From Promethearchaeota archaeon Loki_b32 (lineage in GTDB: Archaea > Asgardarchaeota > Lokiarchaeia > Sigyniarchaeales > SOKP01), in assembly GCA_005223125.1 (NCBI GenBank), contig NJBH01000021.1, positions 1 through 63,024 on the forward strand: DNA of 63,024 bases, in the 5' to 3' direction. Shown one piece after another: positions 9,004 to 22,396 of this stretch. A program made the translations under genes and the position numbers. Each line of letters begins with the position of its first letter. Positions within the stretch are counted from its first letter, which is position 1. Below the pieces are notes generated by a model that saw only the letters and a program-made list of their open reading frames with translations, did no database searches and had not been told where the DNA came from.

Positions 9004-10398
9004 TTATTTCATTTTTCCAAACTCATACATCATTTTAAATGCTTTCATAGCGTGTTTTATTCTGCTCATTATTGGAATCTTAACTTCTGAATTAGATGAA
9101 GAGGCTGCTTTTCTTAGAAACTCAAATGTCCACCTGGAGCCATAACATACGCACACGCATGGCTTATTAAAGTTTTTCGTTAATTCTTTAATGAGATCAA
9201 ATTGTTGTATAGCCCATTGTGTTGCCATCGAACCCATCATTTGGAGTGGCCATCTAGGAACTGAAAAAATATATAAAATGCAATCTACATTTTTATCCCT
9301 AAAAATAGCATTAGCAGTTTTATCAAATGTCTGAAATATTGAAGGTCCTAAATCAATAGTACCTCTAATTGAAACCCAATTAGGAATTACTGATTTAATA
9401 AGAGAAATCGTGTTTTCACTTAGACTCGCAAGATTTAAATTTTGTTTTTCAATCTCATCACATGCTAAAGCCCCTAAACTACCAGAACCCGTAATAATAG
9501 CTACATTCTTCCCTTTAGGTATAGGTTGAGTAGCAAAAACATGGGCAATATTAAACATTTCATAGAAGTTATTAACTCGAAAGACTCTTGGATTCTGTTT
9601 AATGACAGCTTCATAAATTTTGTTGTTTCCCGCTATAGATCCCGTATGACTGTTAACTGCTTTTGAACCAATTTCACTTTTTCCATTTTTTAGTATTAAA
9701 ACAGGTTTTTCCATGTTCTTAAGTGTTGATATAAAATCTTTTCCTCGTTTCGTACCTTCTAAATAAAGTGTAATGATTTTGGTTTTAGGATCTTTATTCA
9801 AATAATTAAGAAGATCTACCTCATCAACATCTACTTTATTTCCTATTGTAATAGTTTTGGAAAATCCTATTCCTTTATCATGAGCCCAATCAATAAAGAT
9901 GTTTCCAAGGACACCTGATTGAGCAATAACAGCAATCTTTCCTTTAACCGCTTTATCAAAATCCATATCTGCTGATGAGAATTTATTATTAAAATCAGTC
10001 ACTCCTATACAATTTGGACCAATAATTCGGACTTGTGTCTCTTGTGCAATTTTTTCTATTTCATTTTGAATTCTAATATATTTTTCTACTCCTGTCTCAG
10101 AAAAACCTGCAGACTCTATAATTATACCTTTTACGCCTTTTTCAACACAATCTTTAACAGCTTGAAGTACGTGTTCATTTCCAACTAGTAGTATTGCTAG
10201 TTCAATTTCTTCAGGAATATCTTTTATGTTTTTATAGGTTTTATGACCATGTATTTCTTGTTTCTTGATGTTAATTGGATATGTTTTAAATTCTGATTCT
10301 AATAAATATTTCGTTGTGGCATATCCAAATTTAAAACTATCTGAAGCTCCAATTATTGCTACTGATTTAGGATTAAAAAAAACATTAAGTTCTTTCAT
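9004..10398 (-). CDS. ADP-forming acyl-CoA synthetase alpha subunit / CoA-binding protein
   Basis: FFNPKSVAIIGAS, GPNCIG, QSG, SHTGSIAG with the phospho-His. Confidence 0.9.
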   Translation of the reverse strand: MKELNVFFNPKSVAIIGASDSFKFGYATTKYLLESEFKTYPINIKKQEIHGHKTYKNIKDIPEEIELAILLVGNEHVLQAVKDCVEKGVKGIIIESAGFSETGVEKYIRIQNEIEKIAQETQVRIIGPNCIGVTDFNNKFSSADMDFDKAVKGKIAVIAQSGVLGNIFIDWAHDKGIGFSKTITIGNKVDVDEVDLLNYLNKDPKTKIITLYLEGTKRGKDFISTLKNMEKPVLILKNGKSEIGSKAVNSHTGSIAGNNKIYEAVIKQNPRVFRVNNFYEMFNIAHVFATQPIPKGKNVAIITGSGSLGALACDEIEKQNLNLASLSENTISLIKSVIPNWVSIRGTIDLGPSIFQTFDKTANAIFRDKNVDCILYIFSVPRWPLQMMGSMATQWAIQQFDLIKELTKNFNKPCVCVCYGSRWTFEFLRKAASSSNSEVKIPIMSRIKHAMKAFKMMYEFGKMK

Positions 10399-10633
10399 AA
10401 TAATATTTGGTTGATGATTTTAAATGAAAATGAGATAGATTATATGATTAATCATTGAAATTAAAGATTAATATTATATAATCAGAATAGAACAATAAAT
10501 TTATAAAAAAAATTATTTTTCTATTTAGCAGAAGTAAAAATTTGATATTTTTGGCAATAAACTTTTAATAACACATTCTTCTTAATTTTAAATATAAATA
10601 ACAATTTTTCTTTTAAAGTTTCATTTATTATAT

Positions 10634-10675
10634 TAATTTGATTTATTAAATCTATAATTTGATTTATTAAATCTA
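10634..10675. repeat. Perfect 21-bp tandem repeat (2 copies) with near-palindromic core; candidate operator
   Basis: TAATTTGATTTATTAAATCTA twice, 36 nt upstream of the ABC operon start; core GATTTATTAAATC. Confidence 0.7.
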
Positions 10676-10711
10676 CAGAATTATAAAGTAAATCCTTAAG
10701 AGCCTTAAATA

Positions 10712-11866
10712 ATGTATCTAGGCGGTTTAATACGAAAAGAATTCGGAAGAATTAGATCAGATAAGAGAACATTAATTTTATTATTTGTAATTCCAGTAAT
10801 ATTAATTTTTGTTTTTGGTCTAACTACTGGAGGAGGTCTTACAAAATTTTTTACATCGGCTATTATAACTCTTGATGATATGCCAACATATGATAACTTT
10901 CCTTCTAATTCTTCTGAATATGATGATACTTTTATATCAATAATGCAATATAATACTTCATCATGGGGATTTCATAGTTATTATAATGCAACAGATTTAG
11001 AAGAATATGATAATGCATTCCAGAATTGTTATGATATTTTAAGAAGTGGTGATATAGATATAATCATTGTTTTACCAAGAAATTTTTCAGAATCAGTGGA
11101 AAATAAAACTAATCCTGTTCTGATTTATCACATCGATGCATCTGATCCTGCTGCAATAACGGCAATTGAAGTTGCTATTCAAGAACCTATCGCTCTATTT
11201 AGAGCAGAAACAGATATGATTGCCAATTTTACAATTATGGTTCCATATTTAGAATTTGACGTCCCATTTTGGGAATCAGCAATTTTAAATTATGCACTCC
11301 CTTTAATCTTACCTATAATAATTCTTGGAACAACTATGAACTTAACCTCGCTTTCAATAGTCTCTGAAGGTCCACTTCCTCGAATGCTTATAACTCCAAC
11401 TGCTAAAAGAGAGATAATATTGAGTAAATTAATTGCTAATTCTGTAATTATGTTGCTTCAATCAACAGAGATTTTTGTATTAACTGCATTTTTTGGATTA
11501 TACAGTTTGGGGTCATTGTTTTATTTCTTTTTAGTTTTAATTATGATTGGCTTTAGTGGAATCTGTATTGGGTTATTTATTTCTGCATTAAGCCCGACAG
11601 AACAAAGCGCAAATCAAATGTATCTAATAATGTTTATAATTATAATCCTTTTTTCGGGAAGTATTCTTCCTTTAGGCGATATTGAAGGAGGAATGCAAAT
11701 TTTTATGAATATGCTCCCATTATCTAATGCTGTTCCTCTTATAACAGATATAACATTAAAAGGATTACCTCTAAATTTAACAAGTTTATTTTGGCTTAAC
11801 TTAAGTTCCTCGATTTATGTAATATTAGCTTATATCATCTACATGTTTAAGAAATTAGAGGTGTAA
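10712..11866 (+). CDS. ABC-2 type permease
   Basis: KEFGRIRSDKRTL N-terminus, single TM, large external loop, multi-TM C-terminus. Confidence 0.9.
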   Translation: MYLGGLIRKEFGRIRSDKRTLILLFVIPVILIFVFGLTTGGGLTKFFTSAIITLDDMPTYDNFPSNSSEYDDTFISIMQYNTSSWGFHSYYNATDLEEYDNAFQNCYDILRSGDIDIIIVLPRNFSESVENKTNPVLIYHIDASDPAAITAIEVAIQEPIALFRAETDMIANFTIMVPYLEFDVPFWESAILNYALPLILPIIILGTTMNLTSLSIVSEGPLPRMLITPTAKREIILSKLIANSVIMLLQSTEIFVLTAFFGLYSLGSLFYFFLVLIMIGFSGICIGLFISALSPTEQSANQMYLIMFIIIILFSGSILPLGDIEGGMQIFMNMLPLSNAVPLITDITLKGLPLNLTSLFWLNLSSSIYVILAYIIYMFKKLEV

Positions 11867-11867
11867 T

Positions 11868-13187
11868 ATGGCAAAATTGAAGAAGAAACCTTTAACATTA
11901 AATTTTAAAAAATTTAAAGATAAGATTTCAAAAATAAAACCAAATTTTGAAACCCTCAAAAATAAAATATCCAAACCAAAACCTAATTTTAAAAAATACA
12001 TTAAAAATATTTCAAATTTAAAAATTAATGCTCTTAGAATCTTAAAACAAGTTATAAAGGAATTTAGGCTTTTATGGACAGATAAATTCAATTTACTTCT
12101 TGCAATCGTGATCCCTCCTTTAATTATAGTAATGCTAGGTCTCACAATGACGGATGCACCCTCAGAAACACAATCTATACCATGCATGTTAATATCATAT
12201 GATTCTAATACATTTATCAATCCAAATAATTTTACAGAATCAAAATTAGATAATTATACAATGCCATATGTAGAGGCTGTAAATAAGTCTAGTATGCTTG
12301 AATTAGTCCGATTTTATAATGCAACTGAAGAGATTTATGCTATGGAAGCTGCTAGAAATGCTTTAATCTCTGGTGAAATCAAGGTTATATTATCATTACC
12401 GGTAGATTTTACTGAATTACTAGAATGGGGCTTACCTGGATTAATTGATTGTGTTCTTGATGCCTCAAATATCCAATATATTCAACAGAGTCTAAACTCT
12501 GTTTATGATTCAATTAAAATATTTGTAAATGATAATAATCTAACTCCTCAATTTCAACTCCAGGGGTTTGAAGAATTTACTATTCCAGAAGGATATAGTA
12601 ACAATTTCAATTCTAGTATAGTAATGGCTCTTTCCTTTATGGTTTTTGGGATTGCTCTTGTATTATCGATATTAGTAATCGTTCAAGAGAAACCAATAGC
12701 AAGATTATTACTTACTCCTGTAAAAAGATCAGAAATTTTACTATCTAAATATATTACATATACCCTTGTATTAGTACTTCAAGTTTCTTTATTAGTAATT
12801 AGTGGTTTGTCAATGGGGTTGTATATAGCTGGTACTTTAACAGATCTATTTATTGCTTTATTCATGATAGGATTTTCTGGATTAACAATGGGTGTTTTTA
12901 TTAGCTCACAAAGTAAAACAAAGACTCAAGCGAACCAATTATTTCTCGCTGTTTTTCTTGTTGCAGTTCTTTTAAGTGGTATATTCATCCCTATTGAAAA
13001 TATGCCATTATATCTACAAGTTATTGCCTATATTCTACCTTTATCTCATGGAGATCCTTTACTTCGGGGTATTATTCAAAAAGGTCAATCTATATTAGGG
13101 CTTCATTTCATTTGGTTATTAGTAATTAGTATAGTTTTGGTAATAATTTCATTTGTAATTTTTAAAAGAAGAAAATACGAGGTGTAG
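11868..13187 (+). CDS. ABC-2 type permease with Lys-rich N-terminal extension
   Basis: KEFRLLWTDK, RLLLTPV...EILLSK, LSGIFIPIENMP. Confidence 0.9.
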   Translation: MAKLKKKPLTLNFKKFKDKISKIKPNFETLKNKISKPKPNFKKYIKNISNLKINALRILKQVIKEFRLLWTDKFNLLLAIVIPPLIIVMLGLTMTDAPSETQSIPCMLISYDSNTFINPNNFTESKLDNYTMPYVEAVNKSSMLELVRFYNATEEIYAMEAARNALISGEIKVILSLPVDFTELLEWGLPGLIDCVLDASNIQYIQQSLNSVYDSIKIFVNDNNLTPQFQLQGFEEFTIPEGYSNNFNSSIVMALSFMVFGIALVLSILVIVQEKPIARLLLTPVKRSEILLSKYITYTLVLVLQVSLLVISGLSMGLYIAGTLTDLFIALFMIGFSGLTMGVFISSQSKTKTQANQLFLAVFLVAVLLSGIFIPIENMPLYLQVIAYILPLSHGDPLLRGIIQKGQSILGLHFIWLLVISIVLVIISFVIFKRRKYEV

Positions 13188-13218
13188 TAGGATTAGTTCG
13201 CCGAAATCAAAGAAGAGA

Positions 13219-14211
13219 ATGGTAGATGTCAATAATTTAAATGTTAAATTTGGTGAAAAGCATGTTGTTCATGATGTAAGTTTTACTGTTGATAAAGGAG
13301 AGATTATAGGGTTATTTGGAATCTCAGGAGCAGGAAAGACAACTATAGTTAGAGTATTGACATGTCAAATTGAAAAGAAGCATTGGACCGGAAATGTTAT
13401 GGTTACTGGTTTATCTCCTGAAAAAAAAAGCAATCATTCAAAGATTCTTAGCAATATTGGTTATGTTCCACAACTTGAGCTGTTAAATTTGTATTTCGAA
13501 TTAGATCCGATGGTAAACGTTGAAGTCTTTACGTCTACATATGGAATGAATAAGAAAAGAGCAAAAGAAACAGCAGAAGAATTGTTTAAAATCCTTGATA
13601 TCCCCCGAGATACATGGAAAAAGAGAGTTGAAAAGATGAGTGGGGGAGAAAAAAAGCGATTATCAATGGCTATCGGACTAATTCATAATCCGGATGTTTT
13701 ATTCCTAGATGAGCCAACAACAGGCGTTGATGCATCCAAACGCTATGATATATTAAGTTACTTAAAGAAATTAAACCAAAAATTAAATACTACGATGTTT
13801 ATAATTACTCATGATTTAGAATCTGCATTAATTTGTGATAAAGTTGCTATTTTAAAGGACGGCCGGTTGTTAGAATTTGACACTTCTCAAAACCTGATAT
13901 CTTCCTTGCCAAGTGAAGGATTAATAGCAAGGTTTACAATTGAAGATCTAAATGAAAAATTAATTGCATTTATTAAAAAATTTCCATCTATAAGAAGAAT
14001 AATAAGGGTTGGGAATGAGGCAATTGAAGTTTTAATGGAAAATTTTGAGGAAAATCTTCCAAAATTAATTGAATATATGGTTGATAATAATATAACAATT
14101 ACCTCAATGAGTAAAGATATTGCTACTTTTAGAAGATATTTTCAAATTAGAATTCAAAAGGAGGAAGAAGAAGAAAGTAGTTTGAAGGAAGTGAAGGTGA
14201 TTCGAAAATAA
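13219..14211 (+). CDS. ABC transporter ATP-binding protein
   Basis: Walker A GISGAGKT, MSGGE, FLDEPT, THD. Confidence 0.95.
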   Translation: MVDVNNLNVKFGEKHVVHDVSFTVDKGEIIGLFGISGAGKTTIVRVLTCQIEKKHWTGNVMVTGLSPEKKSNHSKILSNIGYVPQLELLNLYFELDPMVNVEVFTSTYGMNKKRAKETAEELFKILDIPRDTWKKRVEKMSGGEKKRLSMAIGLIHNPDVLFLDEPTTGVDASKRYDILSYLKKLNQKLNTTMFIITHDLESALICDKVAILKDGRLLEFDTSQNLISSLPSEGLIARFTIEDLNEKLIAFIKKFPSIRRIIRVGNEAIEVLMENFEENLPKLIEYMVDNNITITSMSKDIATFRRYFQIRIQKEEEEESSLKEVKVIRK

Positions 14212-14216
14212 TTGAG

Positions 14217-17200
14217 TTGAGTCGCAAATCAAAGCGATTGTTGAAAAATATAATAGCATTGGGCATTCTAGTTTGTGCACCTATATTATCTATAATTCTA
14301 GTGAATGTTAATTATATTGAATATATAGACGATAACGAGGTTCGATTCATTAAAGACAATGCTGTTTTTTTCACATGGACTCATCAAAATGATCATGGGT
14401 TGTTTATTGAACCTAGTTTAGATTCAAACTTCAGAGCGATTGATTCAATAAATTTCTCTTTTGTTAGCATATATTCATCCGATTTAATAAATCCAAATAA
14501 TGTTTCAAATGAACATGTAAAGGTAAATAAACCAAATATTTTTTTTGATTATATTTTTGAAAAACAAAATTCAGATGGTTCATATTCAGATATAGGTGGT
14601 TTTGGTAATATGATTTCTACACATCAAGCGATAAAAACTTTAGAGATCGCTAATGGATCTTATTTAAATAATAAAATGCAACAAGGAGATACCAATAATA
14701 TTATAAATTATTTAAAAAATTCCTTAAAAGAGGAGGGAGGGGGATTTATGTTGATTCCCTTTTTAAATGAATCTGATATAATATCTACTTCATGTGCGAT
14801 TGATTTAGCAAATACCTTAAATGGTGGTTCTGTTCTCGAAAATGATAATATTTCAATATTTATCAATTCAACTTGGGTAGATGGAAGTTACAAATTGTCG
14901 AATGATATTATGAGCATACCAACAGCAGAAACAACGTATTATGGAATTAACGCATTTTTAGGAATGAATATGACCTATACTACAGTGGAACTAAACGCTA
15001 CATGGTCATATTTTAATTTACTTTATAGTAGTATTGACGGTGGATTTTCAAATTTTATTGGTGAACCTTCTGATGTTCAATCGACATATTATGCCCTCTC
15101 GTCATTGAAAACACTAGGGCTAGGACTTCCTCCATTTTTTGATGAACAAAAGACTTTATCCTTTATATTTAGTTGTTCAAAGGTAGATGGGGGTTTTGGA
15201 TTTAGTTCAGAGCCAAGTGATAATTCAGATTTTAAATCTGGGTGGGCTGCTATGAAATCAATTGATATTCTGAAACAAGAAACCTTGACAGATAAAAATT
15301 ATTCTGATATTATTGATCTTACGATTGAGTATTACGATTGGCTTCATTTTTTTCAGGGTAAAAATTCATTATTTGGTAGTACCACTATTGAGGCAAATTA
15401 TTATGGTGTATCAGCCCTTTATAATTATAATCCTAAAATTTTTACTGAATTTATTAATAAAGAGATTATGAATAAGGAAATATTAGATAACATAATAAAA
15501 TTTGTTGATAAATGTTATAATCAATATGAGGGAGGTTTTGCTTCAACTCCAGATGAAAACGCGACTCTTTATGCAACTTTTTGTGGATTGAACATTTATA
15601 AACAACTTTTTCCCTTTACTAATAAATGGCCTGATGAGTATGAAATTGGGAATATAACAAATTATTTAGTAGATCTTCAAAATCCAGATGGCGGTTTTAG
15701 TGTAGGTCAAGATGTAGATGCTGTTTTAAGTATGTACGGAGCAGTCTATCAAATTTTCTTATATTTAATTAATTCAAATATTTCAACTATTGAAAGTACA
15801 AATTGGGCTTTAAATTCACTATATATCATTAATGGATTAAGTTATATCGATCATGTTAATCTTACTCATTGGATGAGATCGTGCCAAAATCCAGATGGTG
15901 GGTTTTCAGTATTTATAGGATTCCATAGTGATGTAATTTCAACATATTATGGTCTTGAGATATTTACTGATTTGTTACATTCTGAACCAATGTCTAAAAT
16001 AGCTGCTATTGAATTCCTAAAAAACTCACAAAATTCTGATGGCTCATTTTCAGTTTTACCCGCTCTAGGAGCTTTTCTAGACTTACCATCAAACTTTTTA
16101 ATCACATATTTTGGATCAAAAGGTCTTTATGATTATAGATTTCAACCAGAAAATATTAAGAATACCTTGAATTGGTATGCTCAATGTGTTAGTTTTAATA
16201 CAGGAGGAATTGGTGATAATCCTGGATTTGGGGGTGATTTAAGGAATGTAGCTAATGCTATTATTATAATAGATGAATTGCAATATGATCAGAGCTTTGA
16301 TTCTAAACCTTGGACCCAATTATTGACTTACATATTAATTATCGAAGGCGCTTGTATTGGTTTATTTATATTATTAAAATTATATCAAAGACTTTCAATA
16401 CCACAAAGAATAAAGCTATTATTAAGAATTGGTGGAAAACTTAATGAATCATATTTAAAAAAGTTTCCAGCTATTAATTGTGAAAATTTAAGTATCTTTG
16501 CAGGAGGAACATTAATTGTTGATTCAGTTTCTATGAATATAAAACATGGCAAAATTTTAGGAATTTTAGGAGAGAGCGGTGCTGGTAAATCAACGTTTAT
16601 TAAAGGTTTGTTGGGTATGAGAAAAACCACAGGTTTTTGTCAAATTTATGGAATGAATATGAATAAAAGAACTTCAAGAAGAATTAGACCAATATATGGT
16701 TATGTTCCACAAGATTTAGGAAAAATTTACCATAATTTTACAACCTTTGAGAATCTATTATATTTTGGAAATCAATACGGGCTTACCGAAAAAGAAATCA
16801 TGAGTAGAGCTAAAAGAATTTTAGGTAGCTTAGAAATTGAAGATAAAATGGATGAATTAGTCAAAAATCTTTCTGGTGGACAAAAAAGACGAGTTAGCAT
16901 TGCAATTGGTTTAATACATTCACCCATGTTTCTTATATTAGACGAACCTACATCAGGTTTAGATCCAGTTGTGAGAGAAAATTTGTGGTTAGTTTTTACC
17001 AAAATTAATGAACAATTTAAAACTACTTTAGTTGTAATTACTCACTATCCTGAAGAATCCCGATTTTGTAATCTTGTTGCAATATTTGGTAGAAAACGTG
17101 GAATGATAGATTTTGGACAACCAAAAACGCTTTTAGTTAATTTACCAGGAAAGGGAAGATCAATTGAGATTTCATTTACTGATGTAAAAGAAAATGTTAT

Positions 17201-17420
17201 TGCTAGACTTGAATTGATTGAAGGAATTGAGAAAGTTTTAGAAAACAAGGCAGGTATAAGTTTTTCAATATTTACTAATTCAAATCTCGATAAGGTGATT
17301 AAAAAAATAGAAGAAGAGATGGGTAAGAATTCAATTCAAGAAGTCAAACAAATAGATTCTAAAATGGAACAATATTTTCGTTATAAAGCAATGGAGGTGC
17401 CAAAAGTTGAAGAAATCTAG
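14217..17420 (+). CDS. Fusion of prenyltransferase/squalene-cyclase-type repeats, TM helix and ABC ATPase
   Basis: N-terminal TM, about 9 QxxDGGF-type repeats, second TM, then GESGAGKST / LSGGQ / LDEPT / THY. Confidence 0.85.
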   Translation: MSRKSKRLLKNIIALGILVCAPILSIILVNVNYIEYIDDNEVRFIKDNAVFFTWTHQNDHGLFIEPSLDSNFRAIDSINFSFVSIYSSDLINPNNVSNEHVKVNKPNIFFDYIFEKQNSDGSYSDIGGFGNMISTHQAIKTLEIANGSYLNNKMQQGDTNNIINYLKNSLKEEGGGFMLIPFLNESDIISTSCAIDLANTLNGGSVLENDNISIFINSTWVDGSYKLSNDIMSIPTAETTYYGINAFLGMNMTYTTVELNATWSYFNLLYSSIDGGFSNFIGEPSDVQSTYYALSSLKTLGLGLPPFFDEQKTLSFIFSCSKVDGGFGFSSEPSDNSDFKSGWAAMKSIDILKQETLTDKNYSDIIDLTIEYYDWLHFFQGKNSLFGSTTIEANYYGVSALYNYNPKIFTEFINKEIMNKEILDNIIKFVDKCYNQYEGGFASTPDENATLYATFCGLNIYKQLFPFTNKWPDEYEIGNITNYLVDLQNPDGGFSVGQDVDAVLSMYGAVYQIFLYLINSNISTIESTNWALNSLYIINGLSYIDHVNLTHWMRSCQNPDGGFSVFIGFHSDVISTYYGLEIFTDLLHSEPMSKIAAIEFLKNSQNSDGSFSVLPALGAFLDLPSNFLITYFGSKGLYDYRFQPENIKNTLNWYAQCVSFNTGGIGDNPGFGGDLRNVANAIIIIDELQYDQSFDSKPWTQLLTYILIIEGACIGLFILLKLYQRLSIPQRIKLLLRIGGKLNESYLKKFPAINCENLSIFAGGTLIVDSVSMNIKHGKILGILGESGAGKSTFIKGLLGMRKTTGFCQIYGMNMNKRTSRRIRPIYGYVPQDLGKIYHNFTTFENLLYFGNQYGLTEKEIMSRAKRILGSLEIEDKMDELVKNLSGGQKRRVSIAIGLIHSPMFLILDEPTSGLDPVVRENLWLVFTKINEQFKTTLVVITHYPEESRFCNLVAIFGRKRGMIDFGQPKTLLVNLPGKGRSIEISFTDVKENVIARLELIEGIEKVLENKAGISFSIFTNSNLDKVIKKIEEEMGKNSIQEVKQIDSKMEQYFRYKAMEVPKVEEI

Positions 17421-19161
17421 TATTTCAAAGAAAACTAGTACATTGAAGAAATCTAGAAACATCGAATTAGAACGTCTTAGATTAAAAATTTTAGATGCAG
17501 TTAGATTTTCCAAACGCTTTTGGATGACTTATAGGGAACACACATTTGGAATTGCATCAATTCTAAATTTAATTTATAAAAAATCCTTTTTCGAAGTATT
17601 GTTTTTTACTAACAAAGATGTAATGGGCAGGGGTGTACCTTTATTAAAAATTAACACTCCACTCTTAGATGAAATTGATTTCAATGAAATTATCGTTGAA
17701 CCTGATTTTGATGAGGATGGGCTTGTTAGTCCTAAAAAGATTATTGAACGTATGAGGAAACTCATTATAAATGAATTTCAAAAACATATAATGATACTAA
17801 ACAAAGAAGTAGAATTATTAGATGAAAGATTTGAAAATAACATAATTGAGAACAATCCTTACTATAGAGAGATTAGATTTTCTTTTCCTCATTTTGATAT
17901 AGAATTGAAAGTAAATTTCGAAAAATACCCTCTCTTACCATCGGTTTCTTTTTCAAGAACACTTTTAAAAATCATAGGTGAAAGAGAATTTAATAAGGAG
18001 GATATTATTAAAAATTGGAATGAGCTAAATCCTCCTCACATCTATCAATTAATCGAGAAAGTATGTAATATTGTTGCAAGCCATCTAAAATTGGACAAAT
18101 TATCCAATAATTCCCAACACTTAGTATTAAAAAATGTATCTATAGAGAATGGAATACAGAATATCTCTTTTAAGATTCATCGAGGAATATCATTAGGAAT
18201 ACTTTATGATGAAGAACAGTTATCTGATGTAGATCATAAATATGATTTATTTTATCTATTCTGGGCAATTTCTGGAAATTATGCTGATTTTTCAGGGAAA
18301 ATTGAGATTTTTGGAAAAGAAGTTCAATTTTTAAATAAAAAAGATTTAGCAAAAATAGTTATCTTGCCTGAAGCGTATGAATCAAAAATAATAAATATGA
18401 AAGTTAAGAAAGCAATTAAATATAAAATAAACATCAAGGAAATTCAAAAATCTAAAAAAAATAAACTGCAATTACTATTAAAAACTGCTGGTTTTGTACC
18501 AAAAATTGATGAAATAATGGGAGAAATATTTGTAAGACCTTCAAAGAGAATTATCTATAGAAAAACCAATATTAAAAATGCTTTAGAAGTTACTGGTTTG
18601 TCATTAAAGAAGAATCAAAAATGTTCCGAATTGAACCATTTAGATTTCCTCTTATTTTCAATTGCTAGAGCTTTAGTAAAAGTTCCCTCAATAATTATGT
18701 TCTTTATTCCCTTTGAAATATTAGATCGATTAGAATATGAAAAATTTAATAATTATATGCAAAAAATTAAAGAGAAGTTCCATGTGATTTTAATCTTTCA
18801 TGCTCCAGAAGGAATAATATCTAACTGCGATAATATATTAACTATTGGTAAAGAAGAATCAAAAATTGGAACATTCAATAAATTAATCGAAGAATTACCT
18901 CAATCAGGTGAAATTATTACAATACAATTAAATAATCCTGATAAAAGACTTATTAAAACCCTCTACAAATTTGATGAAATCGCTAAGATTCAAGAAGAAA
19001 GAAAAAATGAAAAATATAAAATATTTCTGAAAGACGACCCTAACAAGATGATAATTCGATTAACAAAATTATTTGGACAATATCTTTTCAGCTTTAAAAA
19101 GTATAAAGCATCATTAGAAGATTATAAAGAATTTTTTGAAAAAAGGTATAAATATAATTAA
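17407..19161 (+). CDS. UBC/RWD-like domain plus degenerate ABC ATPase domain
   Basis: LKVNFEKYPLLPSVSF...WNELNPPHIYQLIE, then an ABC-like scaffold (QNISFKIHRG, SGKIEIFG, SIARAL) lacking Walker A, LSGGQ and DE. Confidence 0.6.
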   Translation: MKKSSISKKTSTLKKSRNIELERLRLKILDAVRFSKRFWMTYREHTFGIASILNLIYKKSFFEVLFFTNKDVMGRGVPLLKINTPLLDEIDFNEIIVEPDFDEDGLVSPKKIIERMRKLIINEFQKHIMILNKEVELLDERFENNIIENNPYYREIRFSFPHFDIELKVNFEKYPLLPSVSFSRTLLKIIGEREFNKEDIIKNWNELNPPHIYQLIEKVCNIVASHLKLDKLSNNSQHLVLKNVSIENGIQNISFKIHRGISLGILYDEEQLSDVDHKYDLFYLFWAISGNYADFSGKIEIFGKEVQFLNKKDLAKIVILPEAYESKIINMKVKKAIKYKINIKEIQKSKKNKLQLLLKTAGFVPKIDEIMGEIFVRPSKRIIYRKTNIKNALEVTGLSLKKNQKCSELNHLDFLLFSIARALVKVPSIIMFFIPFEILDRLEYEKFNNYMQKIKEKFHVILIFHAPEGIISNCDNILTIGKEESKIGTFNKLIEELPQSGEIITIQLNNPDKRLIKTLYKFDEIAKIQEERKNEKYKIFLKDDPNKMIIRLTKLFGQYLFSFKKYKASLEDYKEFFEKRYKYN

Positions 19162-19184
19162 TAACCAAAAAGTAGGCAAATATT

Positions 19185-19988
19185 ATGTTAAAAAGTATTT
19201 ATTTCTTGAATGAGAATGGAATTTTATTATATTCCAAAAATTTTATGGAAAAAAAATATGATGAAGATATATTAATAGGCTTTTTCTCATCAATCGTCAA
19301 TTTTAGCAGAGAAGCACTAGGAAGTATAGTTAAAAATATTGATCTCGGGGAAAGTAATAAACTCATTTTAATTCCTCATTCAGAAGAACCAATTCTCGTA
19401 GCTGCTGTTGTAGACGCTAGCGATAATAACATTTTGGTAACATCAATTGTTACTAATACAATGCAAGATTTCGTTGATTCTTACTCTCCGGACTATGACC
19501 CTGAAACAATATTCCCTGATGAAATGGAAAGCAAAATTAATAATAATTTAAAAGGGAAAGTTATGCATTCTCCAATGATTAGAATATTATTATCATGGTT
19601 GATTGTTGGATCTATATCCTATTTTTTAATTCTTTTAAGTATAAATGCAACCTATTTCATATATGATTATTATAATTTAGGGCAATTCATTACTCAAGAG
19701 CAATTATTCACAAGATTCATGCCAATTTTAATATTATTATCAACAGTAAATATTATTATATTATTTTTACCTCCAAACCTTATTTTCGGTTTTCTGGCTC
19801 CCAATTGGAAAATTGCCCTTTTGAATTCTTTCATTTTTTTAGGTGTAACAATTACATTGTATTTCTATTCTATAGAACCTAATTTCGCTTATATTATTAT
19901 TGGACAATTACCATTGACGTTAATATTTTCTCTATTTTTTCTCTTTATTGGTATAAGATATTCATCAAAAATGTTCTTAAAAAGATAA
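19185..19988 (+). CDS. Longin/roadblock-like domain fused to about 4 TM helices
   Basis: IYFLNENGILLYSK...DEDILIGFFSSIVNFSRE pattern followed by a hydrophobic C-terminus. Confidence 0.65.
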   Translation: MLKSIYFLNENGILLYSKNFMEKKYDEDILIGFFSSIVNFSREALGSIVKNIDLGESNKLILIPHSEEPILVAAVVDASDNNILVTSIVTNTMQDFVDSYSPDYDPETIFPDEMESKINNNLKGKVMHSPMIRILLSWLIVGSISYFLILLSINATYFIYDYYNLGQFITQEQLFTRFMPILILLSTVNIIILFLPPNLIFGFLAPNWKIALLNSFIFLGVTITLYFYSIEPNFAYIIIGQLPLTLIFSLFFLFIGIRYSSKMFLKR

Positions 19989-20108
19989 TTTTTTATTCTT
20001 CTTTGTATATTAAGAGTATTTTGAAAAAATTGAGAATTACAGAAGTTTAAATATTCCAATTTAGAGATATATCAAATACTTGAAATCATTTTTATTTTGT
20101 GATTCCTA

Positions 20109-20648
20109 ATGAGCATTATTAAAAAAACAAATAAGATTCAAGTAATATGCCCTATCTGTAAGACAAGAGACCTCGTTGGCATATCGCGATCAAGCTTAAA
20201 TAGAAACTCTCAATTAACCACGATTTCAATCCAAAAAGGACTTATCTGCCCTCATCACTTTCAGTTTTTCATGGACAATCAGTTTCAAATTAGAGGATAT
20301 CAGAAAGTTGATTTGGAATTAAACCAAGAAAACTCTAAAATTTTAACGAATGGTGTAAAAGCTTTTAAACAAAATGAGAATCAAAGTAAGAATCTTTTTG
20401 AAAAACTAATAATCGATGATGATATTGTTAAATACCAACCATTAAATCGGAATAATATTAAGGAAAGGACTAATTCAACACCAGAAAGGATATCAAAAAG
20501 GAAAAAAATGACTCTAAAGGAAATTTATGAAGAATTCTGGGAATTCGTTGATGATGAAAATGAATTTTTTCATGAATTTATAATTAAAGATAATAGACGT
20601 CAAAAATCTTCAATAAATTCTAACAGAAATGAATATATAACTGTCTAA
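20109..20648 (+). CDS. Hypothetical protein with N-terminal Zn-binding motif
   Basis: CPIC...CPHHF. Confidence 0.7.
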   Translation: MSIIKKTNKIQVICPICKTRDLVGISRSSLNRNSQLTTISIQKGLICPHHFQFFMDNQFQIRGYQKVDLELNQENSKILTNGVKAFKQNENQSKNLFEKLIIDDDIVKYQPLNRNNIKERTNSTPERISKRKKMTLKEIYEEFWEFVDDENEFFHEFIIKDNRRQKSSINSNRNEYITV

Positions 20649-20879
20649 TATTAGATTAAAAAACTCAATATATAAGTTATTATTACTATATTGATGTTTA
20701 CACCACTCTTAAAAAATAATTTCGACTTTTAGAAATAAAACATAATTTCTATAAGAAAAAATCTTAGTTTATATGCAAAAGATATAAGAAAATTTAAAAT
20801 TCAGTACTTAATTTTCCAAAATAATAATTTCAATTATAAAAAATCAAAAATATAGAGATTAATTAATAGGTTGAAAAAT

Positions 20880-22396
20880 ATGAGTTATAAATTGCCAGAT
20901 AACAAGGACCTTGATGCTATGGTAGGCATTGTGGGAAAAGAGTACGCTACAAATAACAAAGCGATTACTGCGTCTTACTTGGCGAAATCAGTAATGGGTT
21001 TAGAAATCAATTATCCAAAATCGGATAATGACTAAAGAGCCAAATCCCTGATATCGTCATTCGACCTAAATACGTTGAAGAGATTCGCAAAATCTTAATC
21101 TACTGTTCCGCGGAGAAGATTGCAGTAAGTCCCGTCTCTGGTGGATTGTCTGGTGGATTTTCATGCCCAACAATCAAACCTGGCGGAGTTCTCCTTGATT
21201 TAGGAAGAATGAAAAGAATCATTGAAATCGATGAAGAAAATCGATTCGCAATTGTAGAACCTGGAGTAACAATAGGAGAACTCTGGGCATATATGCATAA
21301 AAATCATCCTGATTGGGCACCACCAATACCAGATGGAGCTCCACCAGCCTCTACAGTTATGGGTGATGCTATTGATAGAGGATTTTCATTATACACTTCA
21401 AGTGTGGGGCCACAAGGAGACAATTTTATGTGTGCTGAAGTTGTGTTTCCAAATGGCGATGTTTTAAGGACTGGTTCTTGGGCATTACCAACTGCGAAAC
21501 CATTCTACAAATATGGACTTGGTCCTGATATATGGTCTTTTTTGATGGGCAGTCAAGGGACTATGGGAGTAATCACAAAAGTGGTGGTAAAGATTTATCC
21601 ACATCCCGAATTTAAAACAGTAGTTGTATGGGGTATGTCAAATCCTTATGACATGCAGAATTTAACATTGGAAATCCAAAAGCAAGAATTTGGGATTGCA
21701 CATAATACTGTTATGGTGCAAGGTGGGAATTACCCTTTAGTAATGACCCGATGGCCTAAAGATAAAGTTCCACATGATTATGAATTCTATGAGGAAATAG
21801 GTATTTCGAAATGGTGGATGAATTTTGAAATATGGTGTCAAACCGCTGAGGAACTTGATTATGTGGTCAATAGAATTGATAAGATGGCAAAGGATTATAA
21901 GAAGAATAGAGCTAAAGACCCCGATTCAATAAAATCTCAGGAACTCCATCCAAAACAAATCGCAAGTAGATTAAAAAAGCCAAATAAAATTGCAATACCT
22001 TATGGTTTCTGGGACGCTGGTTTCTTATTTATTACTTGGTATACTCCATGGCCAGAATGTGCCCATTTCTGTGAAATATATTGTAACGCAATGGAAAAAT
22101 ATGGTTTTCCACCCACGATGTGGGTTGCTTCAATTGAGCGTGCTAGACAAGCAATTTGTATGCCTATCATTTGCTTTGATAGCACAAAGACAGAAGAACT
22201 CGAAAGAGTACAAGATTTGAATAGAGAGACTACTGAATATGGTCTGAAACAAGGATGGTTGAATTATCGACCAGATCCATACATTCACATCCAAGCTTAT
22301 TACCAAGCGGGAATGTACTGGAAATACTTGCGCATGTTTAAAAAACTGGTTGATCCAAATGGAATTTTACATCCTGGGAGGCTTGCTCTTCCATAA
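20880..22396 (+). CDS. FAD-binding oxidoreductase (GlcD-like), 494 aa, spliced: join(20880..21005,21038..22396)
   Basis: Exon 1 MSYKLPDNKDLDAMVGIVGKEYATNNKAITASYLAKSVMGLE joins in frame to SQIPDIVIRPKYVEEIRKIL after removal of 32 nt; GSQGTMGVIT and DPNGILHPG motifs. Confidence 0.88.
21006..21037 (+). other. 32-nt BHB intron in an mRNA
   Basis: GGU-[UUAG]-AA^A-UC(A)AUUAUCC-loop-GGAUAAUGA-[CUAA]-AG^A-GCC: 4-bp helix, two 3-nt bulges, paired flanks; removal fixes both frameshift and stop. Confidence 0.85.

Follow-up and report, generated by a model that had tools for sequence, protein, structure and literature searches.

What would an archaeon do with an ATP-binding cassette (ABC) transporter operon that also encodes a prenyltransferase-like toroid, a tandem pair of RWD/UEV-like units and a longin domain? 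The question is raised by six genes, here called g1 to g6, at positions 10712-19988 of a 63,024-nucleotide (nt) stretch of DNA (the window; contig NJBH01000021.1, positions 1 to 63,024, forward strand) from Promethearchaeota archaeon Loki_b32, a member of the Lokiarchaeia. The host is known only from metagenome bins, and public records label these genes only as "prenyltransferase/squalene oxidase repeat-containing", "ATP-binding cassette domain-containing" or "hypothetical". The reading that we favour, with modest confidence, is that g1-g6 encode a single accessory, Lokiarchaeia-specific exporter of the ABC-2 class (type V, ABCA/ABCG-like) for a hydrophobic substrate, in which g5 and g6 would be non-catalytic.

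An earlier note on this DNA (hereafter the original prediction) had described six tightly coupled genes here, and six co-directional + strand open reading frames (ORFs) of 384, 439, 330, 1067, 584 and 267 amino acids (aa) lie exactly at these positions, with gaps of -14 to 31 nt (1, 31, 5, -14 and 23 nt from g1 through g6). The start codon of g5 is TTG, and the gene overlaps the end of g4 by 14 nt. All six domain assignments of the original prediction hold, including the UBC/RWD-like and longin-like ones that it had guessed from the letters, as does its count of three different subunits of the nucleotide-binding domain (NBD) type, two with intact motifs and one apparently dead. The genes and their main parts, including those set off by transmembrane (TM) segments, are:

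10712-11866, + strand: g1, ABC-2 permease, 384 aa (Pfam ABC2_membrane_3)
11868-13187, + strand: g2, second ABC-2 permease and paralog of g1, 439 aa (Pfam ABC2_membrane_3)
13219-14211, + strand: g3, intact DrrA-like ABC ATPase, 330 aa (Pfam ABC_tran)
14217-17420, + strand: g4, TM segment, toroid ectodomain, TM segment and intact ABC ATPase, 1067 aa (Pfam Prenyltrans and ABC_tran)
14304-16319, + strand: g4 ectodomain, residues 30-701, predicted extracellular from its two flanking TM segments
17407-19161, + strand: g5, predicted tandem RWD/UBC-like units, dead ABC ATPase and C-terminal domain, 584 aa
17416-17697, + strand: g5 first RWD-like unit, residues 4-97, a long helix and four strands in an AlphaFold2 (AF2) model
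17731-18084, + strand: g5 second RWD/UEV-like unit, residues 109-226, with a YPxxxP motif (AF2 model, fold search)
18124-19158, + strand: g5 pseudo-NBD, residues 240-584 (hhalign to the g4 NBD)
19185-19988, + strand: g6, predicted longin domain (residues 1-126) and four TM helices (about 134-255), 267 aa (AF2 model)

The transporter core is recognizable from g1 to g3. Both permeases score well above the 31.6-bit cut-off of Pfam ABC2_membrane_3 (PF12698; 1.5e-26 and 93.8 bits for g1, 2.4e-27 and 96.4 bits for g2), and PF01061 and PF12679 likewise match them above cut-off. A hydropathy scan of g1 gives hydrophobic segments at residues 21-39, 191-209, 245-263, 272-290, 303-321 and 358-376; the predicted topology is TM1, an extracellular domain of about 150 aa, and then TM2-TM6. 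Its paralog g2, about 30-33% identical, is likewise predicted to cross the membrane six times, with about 160 aa in its extracellular domain and a 75-aa N-terminal extension relative to g1, and its sole solved relative is an ABCG23-like (ABCG/ABCH-like) transporter (9e-11). The ATPase g3 (Pfam ABC_tran, 2.6e-24) has all of the expected motifs: Walker A GISGAGKTT, Q-loop YVPQ, signature MSGGE, Walker B LFLDEPT and H-loop ITHD. Homology identifies g1 and g2 as a predicted heterodimeric ABC-2 membrane domain and g3 and g4 as the source of two intact ATPases; by its permeases and ATPases the cassette is an ABC-2 transporter, for which export is the predicted function.

No named subfamily could be assigned to these ATPases. 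The alignment of g3 to the drrA model (TIGR01188) spans 2-292 of 302 profile positions, and g3 and g4 score 196.5 and 158.2 bits in near-whole-model alignments against a cut-off of 312.45. By these scores both are related to the DrrA subfamily yet outside the NCBI membership threshold, and every equivalog score among the NCBIfam named-subfamily models (drrA, SagH, lantibiotic-type) was far under its cut-off. A PADLOC scan returned generic ABC-ATPase similarity only for g3 and g4 (mad3, mad8, AriA) and no match for g1, g2, g5 or g6; a reading of the locus as a defence system is unsupported.

In g4 the second intact ATPase is joined to a large ectodomain. Pfam finds Prenyltrans (PF00432) over three stretches (2.5e-36, 126.1 bits against a cut-off of 26.5) and ABC_tran (2.8e-27). 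TM segments at residues 11-29 and 702-720 bracket an ectodomain of about 670 aa, which consists of prenyltransferase-beta-like alpha/alpha-toroid repeats and contains seven DG[GS][FWY] repeats; the ATPase and its DrrA-like C-terminal domain occupy residues about 750-1067. Basic residues at the N-terminus and in a stretch following TM2 put the NBD inside, and since the NBD must be cytoplasmic and the toroid lies between the two TM segments, the toroid is predicted to be outside the cell. The NBD motifs are invariant across 14 orthologs (35-81% identity), and the fusion is retained in all 120 homologs listed of 168, one g4 homolog bearing a TED Pfam match. The closest solved relatives of the g4 NBD are ABCA3, ABCA4 and ABCA1 (E 1e-51 to 1e-42), and ABCA7 extends the range to 1e-38; together with the ABCG/ABCH-like match of g2, they bear out the link to ABCA/ABCG lipid exporters that the original prediction had drawn.

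The toroid resembles enzymes in its repeats rather than in catalytic residues. It matches RabGGTase beta (6o60_B) at 1.2e-10 and shares its repeats, at the sequence level, with protein prenyltransferase beta subunits (RabGGTase, FTase beta) and terpene cyclases. Unlike these, it is predicted to be extracellular rather than cytoplasmic with access to prenyl diphosphate, it is fused to an ABC ATPase, and it lacks the invariant His, the Asp-x-Cys zinc site and the DxDD motif. There is no DxDD in residues 1-720 and no thioester CGEQ in the ectodomain; in the 14-ortholog alignment the ectodomain has no invariant His, and its only invariant Cys residues, C433 and C657, have no D-x-C context, a check that is alignment-based rather than structural. 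With no DxDD, invariant His or Asp-Cys-His zinc ligands, prenyltransferase or cyclase activity is unlikely for the ectodomain, which is probably a non-catalytic binding scaffold.

The third NBD-type subunit, g5, matches no Pfam family at E 0.01, and no RWD, UQ_con or UBC_like model finds it. Its C-terminal 335 residues give weak matches to ABC ATPases (NCBIfam GldA, 2.5e-6; PDB 7kyo_B, 6e-4). By hhalign this pseudo-NBD aligns with the NBD and C-terminal domain of g4 over 278 columns (probability 96.8%) and more poorly with g3 (190 columns, 85.8%). In the g4-g5 alignment, GESGAGKST (Walker A) stands opposite YDEEQLSDVD, LSGGQ (signature) opposite LNHLD and LILDEPT (Walker B) opposite IMFFIPF, and all three positions are variable or non-canonical in 15 of 15 g5 orthologs. 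Judged from these alignments, the ATPase part of g5 is a duplicated g4-type ATPase without nucleotide chemistry. ABC NBDs dimerise head-to-tail and form composite ATP sites; given that geometry, g5 would be unable to complete the canonical ATP site of a partner, because its signature is gone. Impaired NBDs kept under selection beside intact ones are likewise present in TAP1/2, CFTR and TM287/288. The degenerate NBDs of those transporters retain Walker A and bind ATP, whereas g5 lacks Walker A, Walker B and the signature, and is a third NBD rather than one of two.

For the N-terminal 250 residues of g5, a search of 1.8 billion proteins yielded 32 representative relatives. The AF2 model of this half, from a 30-sequence alignment, has a predicted local distance difference test score (pLDDT) of 88.8 and contains two tandem alpha-beta4 units. 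Foldseek matches to the two-unit model had the FANCL central double-RWD, the Knl1 C-terminal double RWD and CENP-O at the top and many ubiquitin-conjugating (E2) enzymes next, with marginal E-values of 1.5e-3 and weaker. A Foldseek-independent search with unit 2 (residues 123-229) gave the VPS37A UEV-like domain, E2s and the GCN2 RWD at Z 7.9-8.9, with superpositions at a root-mean-square deviation (rmsd) of 2.7-3.9 Å over 97-107 residues, and with the Tsg101 UEV included the range is Z 7.3-8.9; the RWD/UEV/E2 fold accounts for nearly all of the top 50 matches. Unit 1 has weaker support than unit 2, its match being the Ltn1 RWD region (Z 8.3 over model residues 1-129), and a feature-based structure-atlas search with the g5 N-terminus gave nothing usable.

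Sequence features of unit 2 agree with this placement. It shares the YPxxxP motif of the RWD/UEV/E2 superfamily, here reading FEKYPLLPSVSF, with P175 and P178 invariant in 30 sequences and W204 conserved. By hhalign it also matches a domain of a 559-aa Lokiarchaeial protein (probability 96.9%) that is itself matched by Pfam UQ_con (8e-10) and RWD (6e-5), and its profile picks out the N-terminal part of a JAB-domain protein encoded in the genome of the window. No cysteine is conserved in residues 1-250, and none of the g5 cysteines (220, 406, 474) is invariant; because the catalytic Cys is absent, as in RWD and UEV domains, the domain is classed as RWD/UEV-like and not E2. From model and fold search together, the N-terminal half of g5 is a tandem, non-catalytic RWD/UEV-like pair.

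To our knowledge, the tandem-RWD arrangement has so far been described for eukaryotic proteins (kinetochore proteins, FANCL). With FANCL, Knl1 and CENP-O/P, g5 shares consecutive alpha-beta4(-alpha) units, but the inter-domain orientation differs (rmsd 10-12 Å over both units). It differs from the RWD/UEV/E2 superfamily at large in being fused to a pseudo-ABC ATPase, an architecture not found in the literature searched. Earlier reports credit Asgard archaea with E2 and UEV-like proteins and a single RWD-like one (PMC6601020); the literature searched held no report of an Asgard tandem RWD or of an RWD fused to an ABC domain.

Related proteins occur elsewhere in these genomes. The 559-aa protein (L088:6491-8170, on G008:C33) has UQ_con, RWD and UBC_like matches and a middle domain homologous to g5 unit 2, and proteins of its type are present in nearly all genomes of the family. 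The JAB-domain protein of the window's genome (225 aa; L089:5025-5702, on G000:C5) has an RWD-like N-terminus fused to a Prok-JAB domain. Some g5 orthologs had been flagged with one internal TAA; tblastn and profile matches to them were near-full-length, and the profile search showed no internal stop.

The last gene, g6, matches no Pfam or NCBIfam family, and in particular not Longin, Clat_adaptor_s, Sedlin_N or Fuz_longin. In its AF2 model (28 sequences; pLDDT 82.5, predicted template modelling score 0.74), residues 1-126 form a beta-beta-alpha-beta-beta-beta-alpha-alpha domain (DSSP: E2-9, E14-19, H27-48, E51-55, E58-64, E70-77, H82-100, H111-122), followed by four TM helices. Foldseek found AP sigma/mu, TRAPP and zeta-COP (E 8e-5 to 5e-3). 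The VIA list for the model is filled with longin matches at Z 10-13, Mon1-Ccz1 included, those at Z 12-13 over about 115-120 residues; among them are AP-3 mu (13.0), the SYBL1/VAMP7 longin (12.7), Sec22 (12.1) and sedlin (11.8). Roadblock/MglB proteins reached Z 8.4-10.3 over the first 100 residues only. The structure atlas returned g6's own Promethearchaeota cluster (TM-score 0.79), archaeal longin-GTPase fusions, Fuz/Mon1 longins and eukaryotic AP sigma. At the level of the predicted model, the longin-like fold of g6 is confirmed, so that both accessory domains of the original prediction model as it had proposed, one as RWD/UEV/E2 (Z 7.3-8.9) and the other as longin (Z up to 13.0).

The sandwich topology is shared with the longin proteins (AP mu/sigma, VAMP7/Sec22/Ykt6, TRAPP Bet5/sedlin, Mon1-Ccz1, SRX), at the level of fold only, and no GTPase partner of g6 was identified. 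In contrast to them, g6 has no SNARE motif, and it has four TM helices rather than a tail anchor or membership of a soluble complex; it is not a longin SNARE, because there is no coiled-coil segment and the helices follow the domain directly. We considered whether these helices might be a cut-down ABC-2 domain, but the g6 family showed no similarity to g1 or g2 in hhalign comparisons, and the sole hint was one sub-threshold Pfam match, that of the g6 ortholog of genome G033 to ABC2_membrane_3 (5e-6, 26.3 bits, cut-off 31.6). Prediction of a complex between g5 (alignment A3) and g6 (alignment A1) scored 0.00, which is neutral on binding. Longin and TM proteins of the g6 type (280-340 aa) have multiplied in some Lokiarchaeial families (G163-G169, f5-f7), with up to 14 profile matches per genome, some in tandem (G168:C2:73081-74875, G165:C176:7198-8996).

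Whether the six genes belong together was judged from a scan for related loci in one genome per species. The original prediction had staked its case beforehand on synteny elsewhere, and the order g1-g2-g3-g4-g5-g6 is kept on one strand in 62 related loci wherever the contig is long enough, even where g5 identity falls to about 36-45%, and with variable flanks. Across the class's deepest families (f5-f7), g1-g5 still cluster at 22-56% identity: two genomes (G169, G170) have g1-g5 colinear with g6, the colinear g1-g6 being 22-50% identical, and in two others (G163, G164) g5 is divergent from g3-g4-g1-g2 and g6-like genes lie elsewhere. The conserved six-gene order is not due to chance.

The cassette has a restricted range. 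Among the matches listed, every homolog of g4, g5 and g6 carries the label Promethearchaeota or Lokiarchaeia, and strong g5 and g6 matches coincide by genome and contig. Full-length matches to the g5 N-terminal profile are confined to families f1-f7 of the window's class, with none among 239 genomes from the phylum's other families; the cassette is therefore Lokiarchaeial and not pan-Asgard, and the Asgard-wide scope of the original prediction was too broad. About 22 of 53 genomes in the window's genus possess the cassette. In three genomes (G002, G005, G217) the acetyl-CoA synthetase gene abuts the Zn-ribbon-like gene and the gene next to it, with the cassette cleanly absent; since the same flanks abut without them, the six genes behave as a single dispensable unit, an accessory cassette rather than core machinery. 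Genome G033, a single-contig genome from another family, has a g6 ortholog of 27% identity adjoining a 267-aa gene (L021:9311-10947) that matches only the C-terminal, pseudo-ATPase half of g5 (profile 376-574, 8.6e-28), and the flanks of this pair contain no g1-g4 for about 9 kb in each direction.

How might such a set of subunits work? In the exporter that we favour, g3 and g4 would pair as the catalytic heterodimer, because a dimer containing g5 could form no canonical composite ATP site. The g4 toroid, linked to the g4 ATPase through just one TM helix, would sit beside the permease ectodomains, and on the outer face these would together, like ABCA ectodomains, receive or hold a hydrophobic substrate. 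By analogy with those ectodomains, an isoprenoid lipid or lipid-linked compound would be the likeliest substrate; the assignment to a lipid or isoprenoid class is, at the very most, tentative. We suggest that g5 arose through duplication of the g4 ATPase with loss of canonical ATP binding and hydrolysis, and that g5 and g6 may make up a non-catalytic module at the cytoplasmic face, where the RWD surfaces of g5 and the longin surface of g6 could dock, recruit or respond to proteins and so regulate the transporter. Nothing was found in favour of the membrane remodelling that the original prediction had offered as an alternative to export, nor of trafficking.

Set beside known type V ABC exporters (DrrAB, ABCA1/3/4/7, ABCG/ABCH, Wzm-Wzt, RbbA-YhhJ), the cassette shares the ABC2_membrane_3 permeases with their TM1-ectodomain-TM2-6 layout and has DrrA-like ATPases with a C-terminal domain. 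It departs from them in having three NBD-type subunits rather than one or two, in an ATPase joined through a single TM helix to a 670-aa ectodomain, and in the addition of a fully dead NBD with a tandem RWD and of a longin subunit with four TM helices. In the literature searched, on Asgard ABC, prenyltransferase, longin and RWD proteins, no description of this system was found, and the predicted architecture of tethered toroid, dead RWD ATPase and longin membrane subunit has no described counterpart there.

Several observations weigh against a single exporter of this kind. The case for lipid or isoprenoid export comes entirely from family analogy, and a g3 homodimer with g1 and g2 would already make a complete transporter. 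The g6 gene is unlinked to the operon in family f5, and in G033 g6 and the truncated g5-like gene are a pair without nearby g1-g4, so the g5/g6 pair may work apart from the transporter. The patchy distribution within the genus fits efflux or immunity as well as it fits lipid export.

In one alternative, which we regard as unlikely, one operon encodes two machines. One ATPase gene with two permease genes is a common and complete ABC-2 layout, so g1-g3 could be an ordinary exporter, and g4-g6 would then be a separate ATP-driven mechanotransducer: the two TM segments of g4 and four of g6 would form a six-helix unit, dead g5 would brace the g4 ATPase, and the toroid would be moved as in MacB, FtsEX or LolCDE, with nothing crossing the membrane. 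The closeness of the g5 NBD to that of g4, the 14-nt overlap of their genes, the sum of 2 and 4 TM segments to the 6 of ABC2_membrane_3, the sub-threshold match of the G033 g6 ortholog to that family and the lone pair in G033 are all in keeping with such a division. However, a g4:g5 dimer has no complete ATP site, as g5 is without a signature, and g3 is always directly beside g4, also in the rearranged loci (g3-g4-g1-g2). The lack of hhalign similarity between the g6 family and g1 or g2, and the unlinked g6 of family f5, also speak against this alternative.

The distribution of the cassette raises a second alternative, which we consider quite unlikely: a transporter that confers efflux of, or immunity to, an antimicrobial or xenobiotic, like DrrAB, LanFEG or BcrAB, whose toroid captures the compound at the surface and whose g5 and g6 are accessory or sensing subunits. 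Patchy distribution is typical of resistance or immunity loci, and this cassette is carried by about 22 of 53 genus genomes and precisely absent elsewhere. Its NBDs fall in the DrrA subfamily, and the toroid fold belongs to the six-hairpin clan, which also includes LanC-like and thioester-domain binders; one g4 homolog has the TED match noted above. Against this, no biosynthetic, bacteriocin or regulator genes adjoin the cassette, whose flanks are of housekeeping type in conserved synteny; the PADLOC similarity is generic, and the drrA, SagH and lantibiotic-type NCBIfam scores fall far below their cut-offs.

A third possibility extends the favoured exporter rather than replacing it. Longin domains in other systems serve as docking sites for small GTPases, and RWD/UEV domains do so for proteins of the ubiquitin system or for partner RWD proteins; g5 and g6 might by this token be a eukaryote-style regulatory platform that couples GTPase or ubiquitin-like signalling to ABCA-like export of isoprenoid membrane lipids, a proposal that we judge distinctly improbable. 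If signalling-coupled export were true, it would give regulated lipid trafficking a prokaryotic precedent, in the lineage related to the eukaryotic ancestor, and g5 would be the first tandem-RWD module outside eukaryotes. The last alternative, that g5 and g6 are neighbours by descent only, Asgard "eukaryotic signature" proteins with no tie to the transporter, could draw on the g6 genes elsewhere in family f5, the isolated pair in G033 and the longin-TM and RWD paralogs scattered through these genomes, but it is very improbable overall and for g5 essentially excluded, as g5 is itself an ABC NBD paralog of g4, overlaps it, lies beside g1-g4 at every locus examined, rearranged ones included, and is lost, with g6, together with g1-g4 as one block.

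In Asgard archaea, longin and RWD/UEV folds rank as eukaryotic signature domains, for which few prokaryotic partners or functions are established. This operon links the two genetically to a defined and biochemically tractable machine whose closest solved relatives are ABCA lipid exporters, and the cassette, accessory and confined to one class as it is, offers a concrete way to ask what longin and RWD domains do in an archaeon.

Metatranscriptomes give a weak sign that the cassette is transcribed. In three runs from one study, contigs about 97-99% identical to the window, from a close relative, cover 10728-11962 (g1 into g2), 12021-13021 (g2) and 16510-17342 (the g4 ATPase). These are contigs assembled from RNA libraries; DNA carry-over is possible, and the uncovered parts are no evidence of silence. 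The best DNA-holding run differs from the window by a 21-nt and a 1-nt deletion in the upstream spacer (10634 and 10505), which looks like strain variation.

Two further features mark the presumed limits of the operon:

10399-10711, + strand: AT-rich spacer of 313 nt before the g1 ATG, presumed promoter region of the operon
19989-20005, + strand: T-rich tract straight after the g6 stop codon, likely operon end from a reading of the sequence

Upstream of the spacer lies a divergent acetyl-CoA synthetase-like gene (9004-10398, minus strand), and the next gene downstream (20109-20648, + strand) is preceded by its own TATA-like box; no RNA family in Rfam matched in 10000-21000. The downstream gene encodes a 179-aa, Zn-ribbon-like protein (CPIC...CPHH) without a family match. 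It is directly downstream of the cassette here and directly upstream of g1 in many other lineages, and in most loci it is an immediate neighbour of the cassette at one end or the other. Because its position varies and it persists without the cassette, we read the cassette as lying on either side of it according to lineage. The gene was rejected as a seventh member, since it stays in cassette-less genomes and has its own promoter-like box.

Eight g3 orthologs have a 31-32-nt insert within the Walker-B/D-loop codons LDEPTT^GVD, for example at L064:6279-6309, with the same site in L030, L043, L044, L054 and L058 and a different insert sequence at that site in L068 and L069. The site corresponds to the codon boundary T168/G169 of the window's g3, near 13722, where the window has no insert. 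The insert's length is no multiple of 3, it contains stop codons, and it includes a 9-10-bp hairpin whose stem shows paired changes between the two sequence classes; in the L068 fold the exon ends pair (ACCU/AGGU) around the hairpin. By these features it is a candidate intron of the splicing-endonuclease type in a protein-coding gene. Loci with the insert have at least 1 kb of extra DNA between g2 and g3 (L058:3812-5790, L069:4861-6310, L043:4769-5859), and in L044, L054 and L064 a search of 3.8-5.8 kb before g3 found neither g1 nor g2. Two loci, L058 and L069, have a second copy of the first 33-58 codons of g3 ahead of the gene, and in L064 the 5.7 kb upstream is nearly devoid of long ORFs; the extra DNA before g3 could be a mobile-element insertion.

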